64,000 nucleotides of DNA from contig NW_026923547.1 of NCBI RefSeq assembly GCF_032062105.1, positions 124,001 to 188,000 of the forward strand, in the 5' to 3' direction. The stretch comes from Saccostrea cucullata (taxonomy: Eukaryota). Below the pieces are notes generated by a model, which saw nothing but the letters and a program-made list of their open reading frames with translations, was not told the origin of the DNA and searched no databases. Shown in pieces: positions 37,767 through 47,183 of this stretch. Position 1 is the stretch's first letter. Every line of letters starts with the position of its first letter. The translations under genes and the position numbers were made by a program.

Positions 37767-38235
37767 TGTGGTGGTTTTTACATGTATGTTATTAAATTTG
37801 TATGTAATTACAGTGTATTTATGTATATGTGCCTTATTTTATTCATATTTCCCTCTATTTGTCATTACTTGTTGTTTAGAGTTATTCCTCTTTGTTTATA
37901 ACCCGTTCGGGTTGGGCGCGCCCGGGTCTATAGTACCCGGCCGGGGTTTACTATTATTATATGCTATGTATATTGTGTAATCAGAAGAGTCTACATTATC
38001 ATTAATTACTGATCAGACGTATTTTTGGGGACTGGGGCTAAATTTCTACAATGGTAATTATTGCATTCTTGGATTTTATATGATATTGTTTCATATCTTT
38101 TACGTTTGTTTGTAAATTGTAAATATTGCAACAGAATATAGTTATAATTCTTTAAACACTGAAATTCTTGTCATTCTTTTATCCTTTGAACTCGGACTAT
38201 ATGTACGGGACTAACCCCTAGACAGTCCCGTTACA
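37767..38235 (+). repeat. 5' LTR (469 bp)
   Basis: TGTGGTGG...CCCGTTACA; differs from the 3' LTR by about 5 substitutions and one 3-bp indel by eye. Confidence 0.95.
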
Positions 38236-38245
38236 TAGATATTTT

Positions 38246-38256
38246 TGGGGGCTCGT
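38246..38256 (+). promoter_or_regulatory. Primer-binding site complementary to the tRNA-Pro 3' end
   Basis: TGGGGGCTCGT matches the known tRNA-Pro PBS (TGGGGGCTCGTCCGGGAT); starts 10 nt downstream of the LTR end. Confidence 0.8.
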
Positions 38257-38335
38257 TCCGAGGATAAAAGAATATTTTGGTGTTTTATCTTGGATTTTTA
38301 CGCGTCGATTGACGCTGTATATTTATTTACATACA

Positions 38336-39790
38336 ATGTCTTTTTGGGGAGGGTTTCTCGCAATTTTGCGATTTTTCATTCCAAGTTTTCTTCGTGTAAC
38401 TTGTAAATCGGATGAACAATCCTCTAAATCTGGAGGAAATTCTAAAATAGGAGGCAATGAAACTGCTAAAGTTTCCGACAATGCGAAAGTGAAAAATGTT
38501 AGATCCACGCACTTACTTGACGAAGATTCTGCATACGACACGCTTGTTTCATCTTTTTCTCCGTCATTGTCGCTGGAACATGGATATAAATCAGATAATT
38601 CTGATTCCAAAATAAACACTGATACCGAGTGTCCCCGAAATTCATCGTATTTCTCACCTAATCAATCAGAAAACAGATGTTTTTCGCCGATGTATAGACA
38701 AAATACAGACGAATCCATAGATCACGTGACGTCGTACACAAAGAGTATGGAGAGCCATTCCGATGCTAACTTTATGCGATCGAAAGCTAGCACACCGTGT
38801 GATTCTTACGCAAATAAATATGGCATAGACAAACTTAATGTTTGTAAAACACCTCATGTTAATTTTAAGAAAGAAGAAAGTCTTTATAATAATTATGGAA
38901 ACCGGTCTGAATCTAAAAGCAATCGTTTTAGAAAATACAAAGAACCGGACGTGTACAACGCAGAGAATACAGAATGGCCCGATTATTTATGTCATTTCGA
39001 GCAAGTTGCAATGTGGAACGAGTGGACAGATGCCGAGAAAGCTACTCAGTTAGCTATGAGTTTGAGAGGTCGAGCGCAAAGAGTTCTTAGTGAGCTCTCG
39101 TATAGGGAACTAGGCAGCTATGTCGAGTTAAAATGCGCACTAACTCAGCGATTTTCTCCACCCGAGCGTGAAACGGCATACAGGTGCGAGTTTCGTACTA
39201 GAAAACGGAAACCAGGTGAAACTGTGTCCGAATATGGATACTCGTTAAGGCGACTAGCTAGTCGCGCTTTCCCAACATTTCCTTCAGATATGCGAGAAAG
39301 TCTTACTGTTGAACAGTTTGTCACTGGTTTAGGTTGCCACGAACTAAAACGCTACGTGCAGTTTTCTCATCCTAAAACGCTAGATCGCGCTATTTCTCTG
39401 GCACTCGAATTTGAGTCATTTGAAGGGTCTCAGGACACCCCACGGAAACCGCGGGACATTGAGAAACCACATGTTGGTTATGCACGCGCTGTTCTTCCAC
39501 CCACGGATAAAAATGACAATAGTCATGTAAATCTTGAAAAACTAGAAGAATCTATTCAACACATGATTCAGAAAACACTGAAGTCTTTGAAATTTAAAGG
39601 GCATAATGGTCCTTACGAGAAAAGACCTAATGGTCATAGTGGGCCTCACGAAATAGTTTGTTACGCTTGTAATGAAACTGGCCATATTAGTTCTAAATGC
39701 CCAAAGAAAAACTCAAAGCAAAAAATTAAAAAGGGAACCCATAATGACTCTAGTCATTTAAACGAAAATGGGCTGAGCCCACGGCCGTAA
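38336..39790 (+). CDS. gag: Gag polyprotein
   Basis: First ATG at 38336; retrotransposon capsid region (WPDYLCHFEQVA..NEW..EKA.QL..SLRG.A) and CCHC knuckle CYACNETGHISSKC. Confidence 0.93.
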   Translation: MSFWGGFLAILRFFIPSFLRVTCKSDEQSSKSGGNSKIGGNETAKVSDNAKVKNVRSTHLLDEDSAYDTLVSSFSPSLSLEHGYKSDNSDSKINTDTECPRNSSYFSPNQSENRCFSPMYRQNTDESIDHVTSYTKSMESHSDANFMRSKASTPCDSYANKYGIDKLNVCKTPHVNFKKEESLYNNYGNRSESKSNRFRKYKEPDVYNAENTEWPDYLCHFEQVAMWNEWTDAEKATQLAMSLRGRAQRVLSELSYRELGSYVELKCALTQRFSPPERETAYRCEFRTRKRKPGETVSEYGYSLRRLASRAFPTFPSDMRESLTVEQFVTGLGCHELKRYVQFSHPKTLDRAISLALEFESFEGSQDTPRKPRDIEKPHVGYARAVLPPTDKNDNSHVNLEKLEESIQHMIQKTLKSLKFKGHNGPYEKRPNGHSGPHEIVCYACNETGHISSKCPKKNSKQKIKKGTHNDSSHLNENGLSPRP

Positions 39791-39799
39791 GCCCAGCCC
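39757..39799 (+). promoter_or_regulatory. -1 programmed ribosomal frameshift signal
   Basis: T TTA AAC heptamer (39757-39763) in gag frame, 6-nt spacer, stem GGGCTG (39770-39775) / CAGCCC (39794-39799) enclosing ACGGCCGT; pol is in the -1 frame, which has a stop at 39751-39753. Confidence 0.85.
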
Positions 39800-42700
39800 C
39801 TGAAAAACCCAGTCATGAAAATAGGCCAAAACAAGACACGAAAGCTCGTTTGTACAGTATTTCAAAAAGTTGTTGGTTTGTCAAAGCAAAACTTTGTAAT
39901 AAAGAAATTTATTTTCTTGTTGATATGGGGTCCAGTTGGAGTCTAATATCAAATGAAATTTTTGATTCATTGATTGGAAACAAAGATCTAGTTGATCTTC
40001 ACACTACATTGACTACGGCCGATGGGGATTTGCTCTCAGTGAAGGGTAAAACCGATGTAGACTTATGGATTAATGGGAAGGAATTTTTGACAACTGTTGT
40101 TGTTGCTCAACTTGGAGATTTGTCCGGTATACTCGGACTTGATTTTCTTTCAAAATATGAGGCTATAATGGACATGAACCTAGGACGACTACATTCACCA
40201 TTCTTTGGTGAGATCGGTTTAGTAAAAGAGGACAAATTACAAAGTACATGCGCACGCATTTATGTGACAGAGACAATTAGCATACCAGCTAAATGCGAGA
40301 TGTTTTTGAAAGGAAACACGGACTGTGGATTTCCACATGGTGTGGAAGGATTGATAGAACCACTTTCCGATGATAAACGAATTTTGTTACCAAAATCTGT
40401 TGTTAATGTACACAAAAAACAAAGTGTTTTCTCTGTCTTAAATCCGACAACAAAGACAGTGATACTTAAGAAAAATGCTACCGTGGCGTCCGTACAAACA
40501 ATTGAATCTGTAACTGAATTTGACAGCAAAAAAGTCACAGAAAGCCCTCCAGTGGAGACAAGCTTACCAAGCTTACCCGACTATTTGCAGTCCCTGGTCG
40601 ACAATAGCTCGAGTAGCTTAACTGAACAGCAACGCCAGCTGTTAAGCGACACATTAGCACGTAATGCTGACGTTTTTATGGGACCAAATACCCCATTAGG
40701 GCGTACAGATCTTGTGAAACACACAATAAATACTGACAGCGCTAAGCCAATCAAGTTACCACCAAGGCGTCTCCCTATGCACCAAAAAGCCGTAGCAGAT
40801 CAAGAAATAGACAAAATGCTTGAAGCTGATATAATAGAACCAAGCAGTTCACCTTGGGCTGCGCCAATAGTTCTAGTGAAGAAACGGGATGGAACTACAC
40901 AATTCTGTGTAGATTATCGAAAGCTAAATAACGTAACGATTAAGGATGCCTATCCCCTGCCACGAATCAATGAATCACTAGACACACTCTCCGGTGCTAA
41001 ATTCTTCTGTACTCTCGATCTTGCTAGTGGCTATTGGCAAGTCGCTATGGACGAATCTGATAAAACAAAGACAGCGTTCGCAACCCACAGGGGTCTATTT
41101 CAGTTTAAAGTGTTACCGTTTGGTTTATCTAATAGCCCTGCGACATTTGAACGCTTAATGGAAGCCGTTCTATCTGGCCTACAATGGGAGAAATGTCTAG
41201 TTTATCTAGACGACATCATAACATTTGGTGCCACATTCGAAGAAACTCTGGAGAACCTGACTGTCATCTTTGACAGACTTCGTACAGCGAATCTTAAACT
41301 AAAACCGAAGAAATGCGCCTTGTTTCAAGAACAAGTAGAATTTCTGGGTCATACTGTATCCCAAGAAGGTATTAGATGTAACCCCGACAAGATATCAGCT
41401 GTAAGGAATTGGCCCGTACCAACTTCCGTTTCAGAAGTACGCAGCTTTATAGGACTCGCATCCTATTATCGCAGGTTTATAAACAATTTTTCGAATGTCG
41501 CATACCCGCTAACCCGCTTGACACAAAAGAACAGAAAGTTTGAATGGTCAGAGGAATGTGAAAATGCTTTTGATACCTTAAAGCATCTCCTTACAACTGC
41601 ACCAGTATTATCGTACCCATCACCAACAGACGAATTTATATTGGATACTGATGCTAGCGCATATGGAGTCGGAGCTGTGCTCTCACAGATGCAAAATGGC
41701 GAGGAAGTAGTAATTGCTTATGGTAGCAAGACACTATCCAGATCCCAAATGGGATATTGCACTACATATCGAGAGCTACTAGCAGTCGTAACCTTTGTCA
41801 AACAATTCCGACACTATCTATATGGAAGACCCTTTTTATTAAGAACAGACCATTCTTCGTTGATCTGGTTGAAGAATTTTAAGGAGCCAGAAGGTTTACT
41901 TGCACGCTGGATATCTCTCTTGGAAACCTATGACTTCAAAATTGAACACAGAAAAGGAAGTCTTCATGGCAATGCAGATGGCTTGTCTAGGAAACCAAGG
42001 AAACGTTGCAAAAGAGAAGGATGCAACCAATGTTCATCCGGAGAATGCTCAGTCAATGCTTTGAGCTCAGCAGCTACTCAAGATTCAGACATTACCAAGA
42101 CTAACAGACCTGAATCCAATTGGGTAGAACAATGGAGTCCTCAGTACTTACAAGAACAACAGGACAAAGACATGGCAATAACAAAGGTTAAGCAACTTAT
42201 CATTCATCACAAAGAACGACCGAAATTAAATGATCCTTTGCCAACAGTTAACACCTTGCTTCGCCAGTGGCAGCGACTCAAAGTGGAAAACGATATACTC
42301 TACAGAGTATGGGAAGAAAATGAAAACGAAAGTCATCTCCAGTTAGTTGCCCCAAAGTCTATTAGGAGAGAAATTATGCAACATTTGCATAACAGTAAGA
42401 CGTCGGGACATCTTGGACGCGAGAGAACTCTGCATTCTATCAGAAATCGTTTTTATTGGCCGGGAATGACTGATGATGTTGCCCGCTGGTGTCAAACTTG
42501 TCAACCTTGTTCAAAGAAAAAGCCAGGCCCTGGACAAGGAAAGTCCCCAATGCAACACCTTGAAGTATTTGGTCCTATGGAATGTATTGCCATCGACATC
42601 TTAGGTCCCTTACCATTAACTAGAGAAGGAAAACAATACATTATGGTTGTTGGAGATTATTTTTCCAAATGGAAAGAGGCATTTGCATTGGAGGATCATA

Positions 42701-43635
42701 CAGCACAGACGGTTGCAGATAAACTTGTAACGGAAGTAATATGCCGCTTAGGCATACCATTTAGAATTCATACCGACCAAGGCCGTGAATTCGAATCGGC
42801 ACTGTTTGCTGAGTTGTGTTCTCTCTTGGAGATAATAAAATCTCGTACCACGCCATACCACCCTCAATCCGACGGTATGGTAGAGAGATTCAACCGCACA
42901 CTCCAGCAAATGTTATCCATCTTTGTCAATGAGAACAGATCTAATTGGGATGACCACTTGCCATATTTGATGATGGCCTACCGTGCCACGGTTCACGAGA
43001 GTACAAAATGTACTCCCAATCTGGTCATGTTAGGGAGAGAAATCAATCTGCCCATAGATGTTATAGCTGGTACAACTCCTACAAATACACCAGAGATTGG
43101 CTGCTATCATTCTTACGTAGAATGGATTCGCAATACCATGGAAATGACATATGGAATTGTTCATGAAAACTTGCGATCAAGTTTTAAGAAACAAAAACGA
43201 TACCATGATGTTAGACTGAAGCCACGGGAGTTTGCAATAGACGATCTAGTATGGAGATGGTACCCACCAAAAGCAAACCAAAAATTAGGATCCGGTTGGA
43301 CAGGACCCTACAGGGTTGTTTGGAAATTCTCAGACATAACCTATGAGATAAAACATGAAACAACAGGAAAAACAGTTGTGGTCCATGTTGATCACCTGAA
43401 GCAACTGCACGGTGACGGAATTGCAGAGAATCAATATGATTCTGACAATGACCAAGACGAATCTTGTCTGTACGATGAAAATTCAGATTCCGAATATGTT
43501 ACTATGAGCGATCAGGAGGAAATTGAGCCTTTGGCTTACAAATCGCCAGATCTGGATGCGGTTCAATCGAGACGCGCTGATGCTTTCTCGCGGAAAGGAA
43601 GGCTCATAAAACCCGTTTCTCGATATTCTCCTTAG
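39757..43635 (+). CDS. pol: Pol polyprotein (protease, RT, RNase H, integrase), expressed as a Gag-Pol fusion
   Basis: Uninterrupted ORF: PR FLVDMGS / ILGLDFL, RT LDLASGYWQV, LPFGL, YLDD, RNase H DTDAS / RELLAVV / TDH / NADGLSR, integrase HHCC, DDE core and GPY motif. Confidence 0.96.
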   Translation, partial: FKRKWAEPTAVSPAPEKPSHENRPKQDTKARLYSISKSCWFVKAKLCNKEIYFLVDMGSSWSLISNEIFDSLIGNKDLVDLHTTLTTADGDLLSVKGKTDVDLWINGKEFLTTVVVAQLGDLSGILGLDFLSKYEAIMDMNLGRLHSPFFGEIGLVKEDKLQSTCARIYVTETISIPAKCEMFLKGNTDCGFPHGVEGLIEPLSDDKRILLPKSVVNVHKKQSVFSVLNPTTKTVILKKNATVASVQTIESVTEFDSKKVTESPPVETSLPSLPDYLQSLVDNSSSSLTEQQRQLLSDTLARNADVFMGPNTPLGRTDLVKHTINTDSAKPIKLPPRRLPMHQKAVADQEIDKMLEADIIEPSSSPWAAPIVLVKKRDGTTQFCVDYRKLNNVTIKDAYPLPRINESLDTLSGAKFFCTLDLASGYWQVAMDESDKTKTAFATHRGLFQFKVLPFGLSNSPATFERLMEAVLSGLQWEKCLVYLDDIITFGATFEETLENLTVIFDRLRTANLKLKPKKCALFQEQVEFLGHTVSQEGIRCNPDKISAVRNWPVPTSVSEVRSFIGLASYYRRFINNFSNVAYPLTRLTQKNRKFEWSEECENAFDTLKHLLTTAPVLSYPSPTDEFILDTDASAYGVGAVLSQMQNGEEVVIAYGSKTLSRSQMGYCTTYRELLAVVTFVKQFRHYLYGRPFLLRTDHSSLIWLKNFKEPEGLLARWISLLETYDFKIEHRKGSLHGNADGLSRKPRKRCKREGCNQCSSGECSVNALSSAATQDSDITKTNRPESNWVEQWSPQYLQEQQDKDMAITKVKQLIIHHKERPKLNDPLPTVNTLLRQWQRLKVENDILYRVWEENENESHLQLVAPKSIRREIMQHLHNSKTSGHLGRERTLHSIRNRFYWPGMTDDVARWCQTCQPCSKKKPGPGQGKSPMQHLEVFGPMECIAIDILGPLPLTREGKQYIMVVGDYFSKWKEAFALEDHTAQTVADKLVTEVICRLGIPFRIHTDQGREFESALFAELCSLLEIIKSRTTPYHPQSDGMVERFNRTLQQMLSIFVNENRSNWDDHLPYLMMAYRATVHESTKCTPNLVMLGREINLPIDVIAGTTPTNTPEIGCYHSYVEWIRNTMEMTYGIVHENLRSSFKKQKRYHDVRLKPREFAIDDLVWRWYPPKANQKLGSGWTGPYRVVWKFSDITYEIKHETTGKTVVVHVDHLKQLHGDGIAENQYDSDNDQDESCLYDENSDSEYVTMSDQEEIEPLAYKSPDLDAVQSRRADAFSRKGRLIKPVSRYSP

Positions 43636-43955: not shown

Positions 43956-45448
43956 CCCATGGAAAAGTGAACTGCCTATATAGGCAGTTACTAGGCAGTT
44001 CTTTAGCAGTTTTACTAATTTTTAGCAGTTTTCAAACAGTTTCATGCAGTTTGATTTTTACTGCTCCCTAGTAACTGCTAGGACCTTGGGAGTAAACAGT
44101 TTTCCTTAGCAGTTTTTAAGCAGTAATCAGTGTCCCTAACAGTTATATCTTAGCTGCATATGCTTGAGGACAAGACAGTTTTCCTAAACAGTTTTGTAAG
44201 CAGTATATAAGCAGTTTCCTTGTATAATTTGATTGGGTTCAAGAGAAATTTAAGCTCAATGTTCCAACAAATATAACAAAAAGCCAACAACTGACCGCCA
44301 AAATTGAATTCTGGGTGCCAATTTGTATAGTTGGACAAAGGCTATATAAACCAATGAAGAGGGAGCCTGCTGGCCATAAGCTGCATTTAGATTTAATGAA
44401 GAAATGATGTAGTCATTTAACAATTGGTAAGTAATTACTACAATATATATGTGGCCTTTAATAAAGAGATAAATTGAATACATATGTTCTGTTCTAATTT
44501 TTTGTTTGAATTAAGGACATATATTAATAATTGCAATCTGTTTCATGATTAATTCCTTTCCATTTACAGACTTTTAGAAGAGGAGTGGGACAATATTCTC
44601 GTTGGCATACACAAATTTTTGTGTCTCTTTCTACTGAGATCAATGGATGATCTATAAACCTAGCTGAGCAATAAATTATTATGATTACCAAAAGAGTGCC
44701 AATTGAAATACTTTTGTGGTTTACATAAGGATAGAAAAACCAAACAATGTACTGGCCTTTAGTGCAATAGGACTTCTGTATAATCAGGACTTAATGCGGG
44801 ATGAAGTGGATATATATTTATTGCTGTTACTTAATTTTGACATTTTAATCATACCTTCAGTGTTGAATCTTGTTGAGCATCATATGCCCTGGGATATATA
44901 AGTTTTCTAAAAAGTCAGTGAGTATAACTGCATGGTTGTTTGTGTTAATAAGATACATGTAAAATTACAGATGCATAAAACAGTACTAGTGTTTAATTTT
45001 TTTTTAAACATTCATCATAGCAAATTCTGATTGCTTGATTGTGTAGTTAATCAATTGTACAAAATACAATAAATTAAAATGTAACAATTGATCTATTATT
45101 GTCATGTATTACAATTTTGATACGAGAAAACCTCTTCGTGACTCATTAATATTTATGTGATAAAAGGGAAATAGATAAGCAGTATACTGTAAGTCCACAA
45201 GCAGTTAGCAAAAACTGCTAAAGTAACTGCCTATGAACTGCTTAAGTAACTGTCTATGAACTGCTAAGAAACTGCCTATGAACTGCAAAGAAACTGGTAA
45301 GGCTAAGAAAACTGCTTATAAATTGCAAAAGGTTTGTTCATCCATCAGCAATCTGGGGAAGGTTAAGTAACTGCTCTAGGACTGCTTAAATGTTTAAACT
45401 GTTAAGGCTAAGAAACTGCTTAATAACTGCCTTCCACTTTGCCATGGG
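43956..45448. mobile_element. Non-autonomous EnSpm/CACTA (CMC)-type DNA transposon nested in the Gypsy element
   Basis: TIRs CCCATGGAAAAGTG / CACTTTGCCATGGG, 2-bp TSD CA, many GCAGTT subterminal repeats at the left end mirrored by AACTGC repeats at the right end; no long ORF. Confidence 0.8.
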
Positions 45449-45585
45449 CAGTTTATTTATTTTCCTTTCCAACTCTTTGCTGTTATAATGCAAGGTTTAT
45501 TAGTAAAAAGAAAATCTTCATACAGTTCTTTAATGGTAAGCAAATTCTATTTCAGGCTACAGATTTTCTTGAATTATTCGCGGAC

Positions 45586-46443
45586 ATGAGTGAAGTCAAT
45601 GCTGTCCTTGGACAGTGCCAGACCGACTTTATTGAAATCCTCTACGATCCGTCAGGAATGGTCTGCCCCGTGCTTGGATGTAAAGGGACAAAGTTTCCCT
45701 CCAAATCAAAATTCTCCCGACACTGGGAGGAGAGACACAAACTGTATGTCACCAAATTTATATGTTCCGTTAATGGGTGTAGCGCGGAGTGTAGGCGGAA
45801 ATCAGACATGAGGACCCACATTCGCCGAGCACATGAGAGCAATCAGGACAGAGTGGAATTCATACTCACTAAGTGTGATGTGATCCAGAGGGAGAACAAG
45901 GGTTATTTAGACCCAGGTCTATATATATTTAAAGGAGGATGCCTGAGAGAAACTACTGACCCAGTAGTGACCCAGGAACAGGAGGAGTCCACTACAGATG
46001 ATGGAATAACGCCGGTGGATGTGGAGAGTAGATGTTCTACTCAGACTGAGCCCACTGCACCAACAACCGACCTCAAGGAAGAAGAGCTGGAGACCAGCAG
46101 CAAGAAGAGAAGGCTTACTCTACAGGAGTACAGAGACAGGGAGGTCCCAGATCACCGGTCTACAGGGACCCAAACAACGTGGGTGAACCTACCCAGCCTC
46201 GACCTACCAAACCTCCCAGAGGCAGGCAATTCAGAGGAACTGCAGTCGTGCCTCATGTGGCTGTGCAACAGCATGGACGTAGTAGGACGAGCGAGAGCAT
46301 TGGTGAAAAAGAGGATAGAGGACGGTGAGCGAACGGAACTGGAGCGAGAGAGGGAAATGAGGCGTCAACTGGAGAAGAAGAACCGGGAATTAGAGGGCGA
46401 GATCAGGAAGTTGCGAGCGATGGACACACTGTTTGAGGAGTGA
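45586..46443 (+). CDS. Retrotransposon ORF3: 285-aa protein with two C2H2-type zinc fingers, acidic region, basic NLS-like motif and C-terminal coiled coil
   Basis: Intact ORF between pol and the PPT; CPVLGC-x13-HWEERH and CSVNGC-x12-HIRRAH; KKRRLTLQEYR; heptad-like ELEREREMRRQLEKKNRELEGEIRKL; acceptor TTCTATTTCAG ending at 45555. Confidence 0.8.
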   Translation: MSEVNAVLGQCQTDFIEILYDPSGMVCPVLGCKGTKFPSKSKFSRHWEERHKLYVTKFICSVNGCSAECRRKSDMRTHIRRAHESNQDRVEFILTKCDVIQRENKGYLDPGLYIFKGGCLRETTDPVVTQEQEESTTDDGITPVDVESRCSTQTEPTAPTTDLKEEELETSSKKRRLTLQEYRDREVPDHRSTGTQTTWVNLPSLDLPNLPEAGNSEELQSCLMWLCNSMDVVGRARALVKKRIEDGERTELEREREMRRQLEKKNRELEGEIRKLRAMDTLFEE

Positions 46444-46704: not shown

Positions 46705-46717
46705 AAGGAAGGGGGAG
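46705..46717 (+). promoter_or_regulatory. Polypurine tract
   Basis: AAGGAAGGGGGAG immediately before the 3' LTR TG. Confidence 0.9.
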
Positions 46718-47183
46718 TGTGGTGGTTTTTACATGTATTTAATTAAAATTGTATGTAATTACAGTGTATTTATGTATATGTGCCTTATTTTATTCATATT
46801 TCCCTCTATTTGTCATTACTTGTTGTTTAGAGTTATTCCCCTTTGTTTATAACCCGTTCGGGTTGGGCGCGCCCGGGTCTATAGTACCCGGCCGGGGTTT
46901 ACTATTATTATATGCTATGTATATTGTGTAATCAGAAGAGTCTACATTATCATTAATTACTGATCAGACGTATTTTTGGGGACTGGGGCTAAATTTCTAC
47001 AATGGTAATTATTGCATTCTTGGATTTTATATGATATTGTTTCATATCTTTTACGTTTGTTTGTAAATTGTAAATATTGCAACAGAATATAGTAATTCTT
47101 TAAACACTGAAATTCTTGTTATTCTTTTATCCTTTGAACTCGGACTATATGTACGGGACTAACCCCTAGACAGTCCCGTTACA
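46718..47183 (+). repeat. 3' LTR (466 bp)
   Basis: Direct repeat of 37767-38235. Confidence 0.95.

Follow-up and report, generated by a model that had tools for sequence, protein, structure and literature searches.

Which kind of protein is encoded by the open reading frame that lies between pol and the 3′ LTR of a Gypsy retrotransposon in Saccostrea cucullata, in the place where env would be expected? LTR retrotransposons are usually taken to depend on host transcription factors, and element-encoded regulators are a mark of complex retroviruses. An earlier, sequence-only reading of the locus had proposed that this frame, here called ORF3, encodes a nucleic acid-binding regulator and not an envelope protein. 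We followed up that reading in the window, by which we mean the whole stretch of 64,000 nt analyzed (positions 124,001 to 188,000 of contig NW_026923547.1), and among relatives of the element and of its third gene. All window coordinates below are on the forward (+) strand.

The window holds a young, complete Gypsy element

The Gypsy element in the window is young and complete, with gag and pol both open. The 5′ LTR (37767..38235, 469 nt, TG...CA) and the 3′ LTR (46718..47183) were aligned pairwise and are 98.9% identical, with five mismatches over 466 aligned nt and one 3-nt indel. The 4-nt flanks of the element, ATAG and ATAT, match at three of four positions, and perfect 4-nt target duplications were found around sister copies. 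A primer-binding-site-like run, which we take to be tRNA-Pro-like, is located at 38246..38265, and a polypurine tract at 46707..46717. By Pfam, gag (38337..39790) contains Retrotrans_gag and a CCHC knuckle, and pol (39754..43635) is open for 1293 aa encoding protease, RT, RNase H, and integrase in the Gypsy order. The paired TG...CA LTRs, the primer-binding site, the polypurine tract, and a gag followed by a PR-RT-RH-IN pol place the element in Ty3/Gypsy. A TTTAAAC slippery site with a hairpin (39757..39805) is found at the gag/pol overlap; the hairpin is estimated at -14.3 kcal/mol (z -2.1), with 7 of 200 shuffles equally good, and gag-pol is likely made by a -1 frameshift at TTTAAAC.

The 5′ end of gag (38337-38400) encodes a hydrophobic, amphipathic-looking stretch that is kept across several families and is a possible membrane anchor. 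Elsewhere in the genome, six near-identical copies of the element are arranged head to tail at G000:C3756:55566-97335 (L034, L035, and L074), with a period of 7878 nt and with single LTRs shared between neighbors, and similar arrays are present on C15401 and C1347. These arrays are either real tandem insertions or assembly effects.

In the window copy, 1493 of the ~1950 nt separating pol from ORF3 belong to a MITE (43956..45448), a non-autonomous DNA transposon that is not part of the Gypsy element. The MITE has CCC...GGG terminal inverted repeats and a 2-nt target duplication, which is CA in the window and TT and AC elsewhere. It has 55 matches in the genome and is missing in all four aligned sister copies; in sisters, pol and ORF3 are ~460 nt apart. 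The nature of the AT-rich flank of ORF3 had been misread, as much of it is the separate MITE. A GT-AG intron within the MITE (44425-44569) was seen in one RNA-guessed contig.

ORF3 coding begins at a splice acceptor

As first read, ORF3 is intact between the pol stop at 43635 and the polypurine tract and 3′ LTR, and it is more GC- and purine-rich (GC 0.50, purine 0.60) than its flanks (GC 0.25-0.35); the GC content of gag/pol is 0.41. The start proposed at the time, ATG 45586, which would give a protein of 285 aa, did not hold. The frame is open from 45427 to 46443. Codons 45556-45585 contain six variable sites among five copies, with every change synonymous; ATG 45586 is replaced by CTG in two of the five copies; and sister families have an ATG directly 3′ of the acceptor, with a DFL(D/E)LFAD motif in common. 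We therefore place the start of coding at the splice acceptor, and the coding exon at 45556..46443, with 295 codons counted from the acceptor.

The acceptor TTCTATTTCAG (45545..45555, AG at 45554-55) had been recognized from the start, and relatives keep it ahead of the coding start. In 22 of 22 ORF3 frames, an AG following a pyrimidine-rich run precedes the start of coding by 0-5 nt, and a further 15 of 15 have such an AG 0-9 nt ahead of it. The window family has no such ATG 3′ of the acceptor, and its start codon would likely be supplied by a short LTR exon ending in ATG/GT (the slash marks the exon end). A candidate donor, ATG/GTAATT (38051..38059, with ATG/GT at 38051-55), is found in the window and five sister copies and is in phase with ORF3. 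In the L040/L041 family, the homologous place in the LTR reads ACG/GTAAAT, and that family supplies an ATG of its own downstream of the acceptor. This complementary pattern of ATGs in two families argues for the putative LTR donor, whose score with a splice-site matrix is only moderate. Another in-frame ATG/GT, 20 nt before the acceptor, was rejected as the donor because the intron would be too short and because the site is not found in sister copies.

RNA data consisted of one raw oligo-dT run (47% of the run) and three RNA-guessed contig sets. In the poly(A) RNA of the oligo-dT run, ORF3 is covered by reads, at a depth of 8-14 over its 3′ two-thirds and 3.6 at its 5′ end, compared to 0-3 over gag/pol; the library is apparently unstranded, the mapped reads derive from sister copies, and the 3′ bias of oligo-dT priming could be the cause of this profile. 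No junction from the LTR to 45556 was present among 163 raw reads or 66 contigs. One RNA-guessed contig (run X1) joins single-copy host DNA at the GT site of a host intron (G000:C16793:4619-4638, L071) to the ORF3 acceptor, which indicates that the acceptor is likely functional.

The same chimeric joint on G000:C16793 shows the acceptor as able to trap host transcripts. The host exon involved, presumably isochorismatase-like, gave no Pfam match. Run X3 gave a second contig with a loose end at 45555, for which a genome search returned no match.

ORF3 encodes a soluble protein with a C2H2 finger pair and a coiled coil

No env family was found in ORF3 by Pfam search, and the protein has no transmembrane or signal segment. 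With a maximal 19-residue Kyte-Doolittle value of 0.96, it contains no hydrophobic segment, and its earlier exclusion as an Env is supported. The first 20 codons (45556..45615) encode an acidic-hydrophobic motif whose D/E-L pattern is kept in all families and which is a candidate activation region. This is followed by a folded module (45616..45960) composed of two C2H2 fingers (45664-45738 and 45763-45834), an extra helix, and an NxGYxDPG tail (45895-45918). The tandem fingers lie where they were first noticed, in the form C-x4-C...H-x4-H, and have the Cys2/His2 ligands and beta-beta-alpha fold of classical C2H2 fingers.

Residues 21-135 were modeled by AlphaFold2 as a confident fold of ~100 aa (pLDDT 92.9), and the C, H, W, R, D, P, and G residues of the module are invariant among homologs. 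The best PDB sequence match of the module was CTCF ZF6-7 (E 3e-7); ZF7 of CTCF has the same RKSD recognition helix. TFIIIA was also among the PDB sequence matches (E 5e-5). The pair superposes on DNA-bound tramtrack (Z 4.8, rmsd 2.1 over 62) and on CTCF (Z 5.2, rmsd 2.7 over 59), values of Z that are modest and, being under 8, fall in the common-fold range. No Pfam family reached its cut-off for the module (zf-C2H2 scored 17.8 versus a cut-off of 25.2), no solved structure matched the module tail beyond residue ~92, and Foldseek gave no match at E <= 0.001 with either model. VIA-align of the full model returned generic coiled coils only, and the ESM Atlas returned generic C2H2 clusters only.

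Arg at position +6 of finger 1, and Arg at -1 and Asp at +3 of finger 2, are fixed in seven of seven families of group A, the group that includes the window element; these families vary at +1, +2, and +6 of finger 2. For CTCF, two papers report that 5mC at motif position C2 obstructs D451 (PMC10325916) and that R448 contacts a conserved nucleotide (PMC10094706).

Downstream of the module, a basic patch is followed by an SLxEY motif, [ILV][ST][LIV]x[DEQ]Y, in an NLS-like region (46102..46131) that starts with the KKRR (46102) of the sequence-only reading. A TQT site of the LC8 (dynein light chain) type is located at 46162..46179, with a second site at 46036-46050. Among 26 full-length homologs, 9 of 35 rows having been dropped as partial, the SLxEY pattern is present in 20 versus 0.2 expected from shuffles, and [ST]QT in 19 versus 4.0 expected, mostly ~90 residues from the C-terminal end. 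SLxEY presumably resembles short motifs of cyclin T1 and SETD5; motif searches with it returned nothing useful. The TQT anchor is situated in a variable, disordered linker near the coiled coil, as in the layout of LC8 clients. The coiled coil (46231..46440) is formed by a long helix of residues 226-293 with a conserved ERxxRRxLExEN and, as had been supposed, reaches the C-terminal end. When the ORF3 site was modeled with LC8 of the host itself, it scored 0.36 compared to 0.05 for the best control (contact agreement >= 55%, partner pLDDT >= 41). Support at this level is weak, and a textbook pair can pass because the predictor has learned it; among reference pairs, 51 of 78 solved ones attained the mark used, as did 2 of 108 mismatched ones.

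ORF3 is inherited with pol and maintained by selection

In a mollusc Gypsy clade, ORF3 is a third gene of ancient standing that selection has preserved. A search of the S. cucullata genome gave 118 ORF3 matches among 136 scored of 255 candidates. Of 40 loci around the best ORF3 matches, 36 carry a pol that precedes ORF3 in the same orientation; among them are families in which pol is ~55% and ORF3 30-45% identical. The remaining four are fragments or truncated. Ten further weak matches comprised five with pol upstream, one with an integrase fragment, and four with none within the stretch read. In the converse test, 40 loci were picked by integrase alone; the module follows pol in 26 of the top 30 and is absent from all 10 that belong to a sister clade. 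Three of the four top loci that have no module are deletions relative to near-identical sisters, and one ends at the contig end. The sampled carriers of ORF3 form one side of an integrase branch with 100% support, and the integrase and ORF3 trees show the same family groupings and pairs where resolved.

Three outcomes had been named that would speak against the proposal: loss of ORF3 from sister copies, a dN/dS near 1, and a best match to one host gene unconnected with Gypsy pol. None of the three was observed. ORF3 is present in sister copies and in the families with ~55% identical pol, and its homologs accompany Gypsy pol and not one host gene, so it is not a lone capture. In six of six pairs within the window's family, the dN/dS of ORF3 is 0.07-0.15, far under 1; pol gave 0.15-0.17. 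Eight other measurable ORF3 pairs gave 0.12-0.48, and four pairs were saturated.

A profile search yielded 821 proteins at E <= 0.001, among which the named ORF3-like proteins are from Magallana gigas, Mytilus coruscus, M. galloprovincialis, and Sinanodonta woodiana. In three gene models of M. coruscus, a Gypsy integrase is fused to ORF3 homologs, and on these three models the linkage of ORF3 to pol extends outside the S. cucullata genome. Metagenome scans for DNA of relatives found none.

A piece of L045-family ORF3, 326 nt long, is present in six or more identical copies that lack pol (L069 and L070; C635, C2838, C5709, and C20031) and is probably carried inside another repeat. At L080:874-5118(-), a divergent element has an antisense ORF of 1415 aa upstream of its pol remnant.

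Variants and relatives of the module

The ORF3 proteins of distant families, designated group B (L094-L121 and L080), are shorter, at 157-210 aa. They keep the module and the acidic start, followed by a basic helix and an RD motif. The recognition residues (Arg/Asp), SLxEY, TQT, and the long coiled coil were not found in group B, and hence one mechanism may not cover the clade. One homolog of this type is named, from Magallana gigas.

The module is also found in 2-21 copies within long mollusc proteins (P0008, P0009, P0012, P0019, P0033, P0076, and P0102), the named ones being from Sinanodonta, Haliotis (with an RRM), and Gigantopelta (with a G-patch gene model). In a tree of 70 module units, some units of these proteins are interleaved with modules from the elements, and the multi-module proteins may reflect repeated domestication. 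The tree is poorly resolved, with 39 of 67 branches open, and recovered neither a host-first nor an element-first order. A search of the S. cucullata genome with P0036 found no multi-module host gene, the 46 matches being essentially ORF3 loci. In P0110, the module precedes an APE-type endonuclease domain, and this protein is possibly a LINE-borne module or a gene-model fusion.

In the sister Gypsy clade, a different zinc-finger ORF3 occupies the same slot at 4 of 10 loci (L124:2675-3403, L129:2629-3261, L130:2686-3381, and L131:2527-3159, all on the - strand). It consists of C2HC and C2H2 fingers, an acidic tract, an RKxTxP motif, an xQT site, and a beta-rich end, and has a dN/dS of about 0.07 in one pair. 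Its similarity to the window ORF3 is of the generic finger kind only (HHalign 85%, 57 columns).

A candidate target in the LTR

The recognition code applied to the ORF3 fingers presumably predicts a site of the form NCG-G. In the 5′ LTR of the window, a GC-rich block with inverted CGGG/CCCG repeats (37901..37949) is a weak candidate for the region bound by ORF3. CGGG occurs 8 times in this otherwise AT-rich LTR compared to 1.6 expected; with local shuffles, the values are 7 and 3.4 (p 0.023). For six group-A LTRs, CGGG ranked first of 136 4-mers against whole-LTR shuffles (28 versus 12.3), and seventh against local shuffles with the ends removed (23 versus 15.0, z 2.6). The z with local shuffles was likewise 2.6 in group B, whose fingers lack the Arg/Asp pair, and 1.8 and 1.5 in the other groups, with ORF3-less LTRs at 1.5. 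Only one of the six group-A LTRs, that of the window, had p < 0.05. The motif was first spotted by eye and the LTRs tested are mutually related, and we treat the CGGG block as a lead, not as weighty support.

Proposed function of ORF3

We lean, by a little, toward ORF3 being an element-encoded, sequence-specific DNA-binding regulator that would act on its own LTR to raise transcription. Splicing would join a short exon of the 5′ LTR to 45556, giving an mRNA without gag and pol, and the basic patch would carry the protein into the nucleus. Two copies of the protein may be paired by LC8 bound at TQT together with the coiled coil, and the fingers would then recognize a site that includes CG (NCG-G), for which the inverted CGGG repeats of the LTR are candidates. 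With Asp at +3, as in CTCF ZF7, binding might be sensitive to CpG methylation. The acidic N-terminus and SLxEY would recruit host transcription or chromatin factors.

A role in binding DNA fits the CTCF- and tramtrack-like finger pair with its fixed base-contact residues. The occurrence of the module in the Haliotis RRM protein and the Gigantopelta G-patch gene model means that RNA binding fits too, and gives a basis for a Rev- or Rex-like protein, which we consider unlikely. Such a protein, translated from the spliced transcript, would associate with unspliced genomic RNA and favor its export, its stability, or its escape from the LTR donor. A donor near the 5′ end would create a need to protect full-length RNA, and the PDB matches include TFIIIA, a protein that binds both kinds of nucleic acid. 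Against this reading, the Arg, Arg, and Asp residues are fixed at canonical DNA-contact positions, and the top matches are DNA-bound finger pairs. The same binding evidence would serve a self-limiting repressor, or an insulator-like protein that shields the element in the fashion of CTCF, its closest finger match, and the present data would fit either sign of the effect. We hold damping or shielding at the LTR to be improbable, as the conserved acidic-hydrophobic N-terminus has a pattern typical of activators, and a repressor carried in cis is less likely to be maintained by selection over the long term.

LC8 is more often a dimerization hub than a cargo adaptor, which counts against a role for ORF3 in transport or targeting. 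In such a role, the protein would travel with the particle or integration complex, reach the nucleus by way of LC8 and dynein, and tether integration to CG-rich DNA. The TQT site of 19 of 26 homologs, the weak LC8 fold support, and a DNA-binding module that could act as a tether agree with it, but the target duplications found are AT-rich 4-mers and group B has no TQT, and there is little likelihood that this is what ORF3 does. Passive capture of a host gene fragment could be suspected from the repetition of the module 2-21 times in long mollusc proteins. Together with an Env-like entry protein, it is nonetheless largely refuted by the low dN/dS, the inheritance with pol, and the absence of a transmembrane or signal segment, and we give either almost no credence.

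The preferred reading, an activator of the element's own LTR, can be extended to the whole mollusc Gypsy radiation. The radiation would then be "complex," with a methylation-sensitive C2H2 activator of the LTR made from a spliced mRNA and dimerized by LC8; the sister clade would have gained a second zinc-finger ORF3 independently, and hosts would repeatedly have made multi-finger genes from the module. This broader picture is possible, and we offer it tentatively.

Comparison with known systems

Complex retroviruses encode regulators such as Tas/Bel1 of foamy virus, Tax and Rex of HTLV, and Tat and Rev of HIV. ORF3 resembles these in being a 3′ gene with a putative spliced mRNA and a proposed action on its own element's expression, but its host is a Gypsy element, and neither Pfam nor PDB sequence matches indicated homology to them. 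The likeness to CTCF ZF6-7 and tramtrack consists of a tandem beta-beta-alpha pair with HxxxxH ligands and the RKSD helix as in CTCF ZF7; in contrast to those proteins, ORF3 has two fingers only, CxxxxC spacing, a conserved Trp, the extra helix, and the NxGYxDPG tail. ASCIZ/ATMIN proteins are LC8 clients with C2H2 fingers, TQT sites in a disordered region, and a coiled coil. ORF3 shares the C2H2 fingers and a disordered TQT next to a coiled coil, but has one or two TQT sites and no array, and its binding of LC8 is predicted, with weak support. Arabidopsis VANC is a transposon-encoded anti-silencing factor; like ORF3, it is an element-encoded protein proposed to bind a DNA motif of its own element, but its fold is unrelated, and the host of ORF3 is a retrotransposon.

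The known third ORFs of Gypsy elements, as described in PMC5408684, encode Env or, in bdelloid rotifers, a GDSL esterase or a DEDDy exonuclease, and the sORF2 products of the MDG1 group are small fusogens according to 10.1101/2025.03.14.642691. The Metaviridae with such genes (errantiviruses with env, the bdelloid elements, and MDG1 with sORF2) have in common with the window element the LTR-gag-pol layout, an extra ORF between pol and the 3′ LTR, and a likely spliced subgenomic mRNA. The ORF3 of the window differs in encoding a soluble protein that has no transmembrane or enzyme domain and the look of a nucleic acid-binding regulator. A literature search, with supplements, Repbase, and Dfam outside its scope, where the ORF may already be annotated, found no paper describing ORF3. 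Zinc fingers are absent from the main-text passages of PMC6238403, PMC10294476, and PMC13524379; those of PMC6238403, the source of the mollusc Gypsy clade names MolGy1-16 and C-clade, mention no ORF, and those of PMC10294476 no accessory or third ORF. ORF3 is thus a non-env third gene of Gypsy, of a zinc-finger kind that we did not find in print.

With a zinc-finger gene conserved among many of the Gypsy families of molluscs, the strategy of complex retroviruses would reach into the Metaviridae, and ORF3 offers a protein that is small, open to testing, and has a predicted site. Its finger module of ~100 aa has no Pfam family of its own and is common to transposons and host genes, making it a case in which the origin of zinc-finger genes from transposons can be studied.
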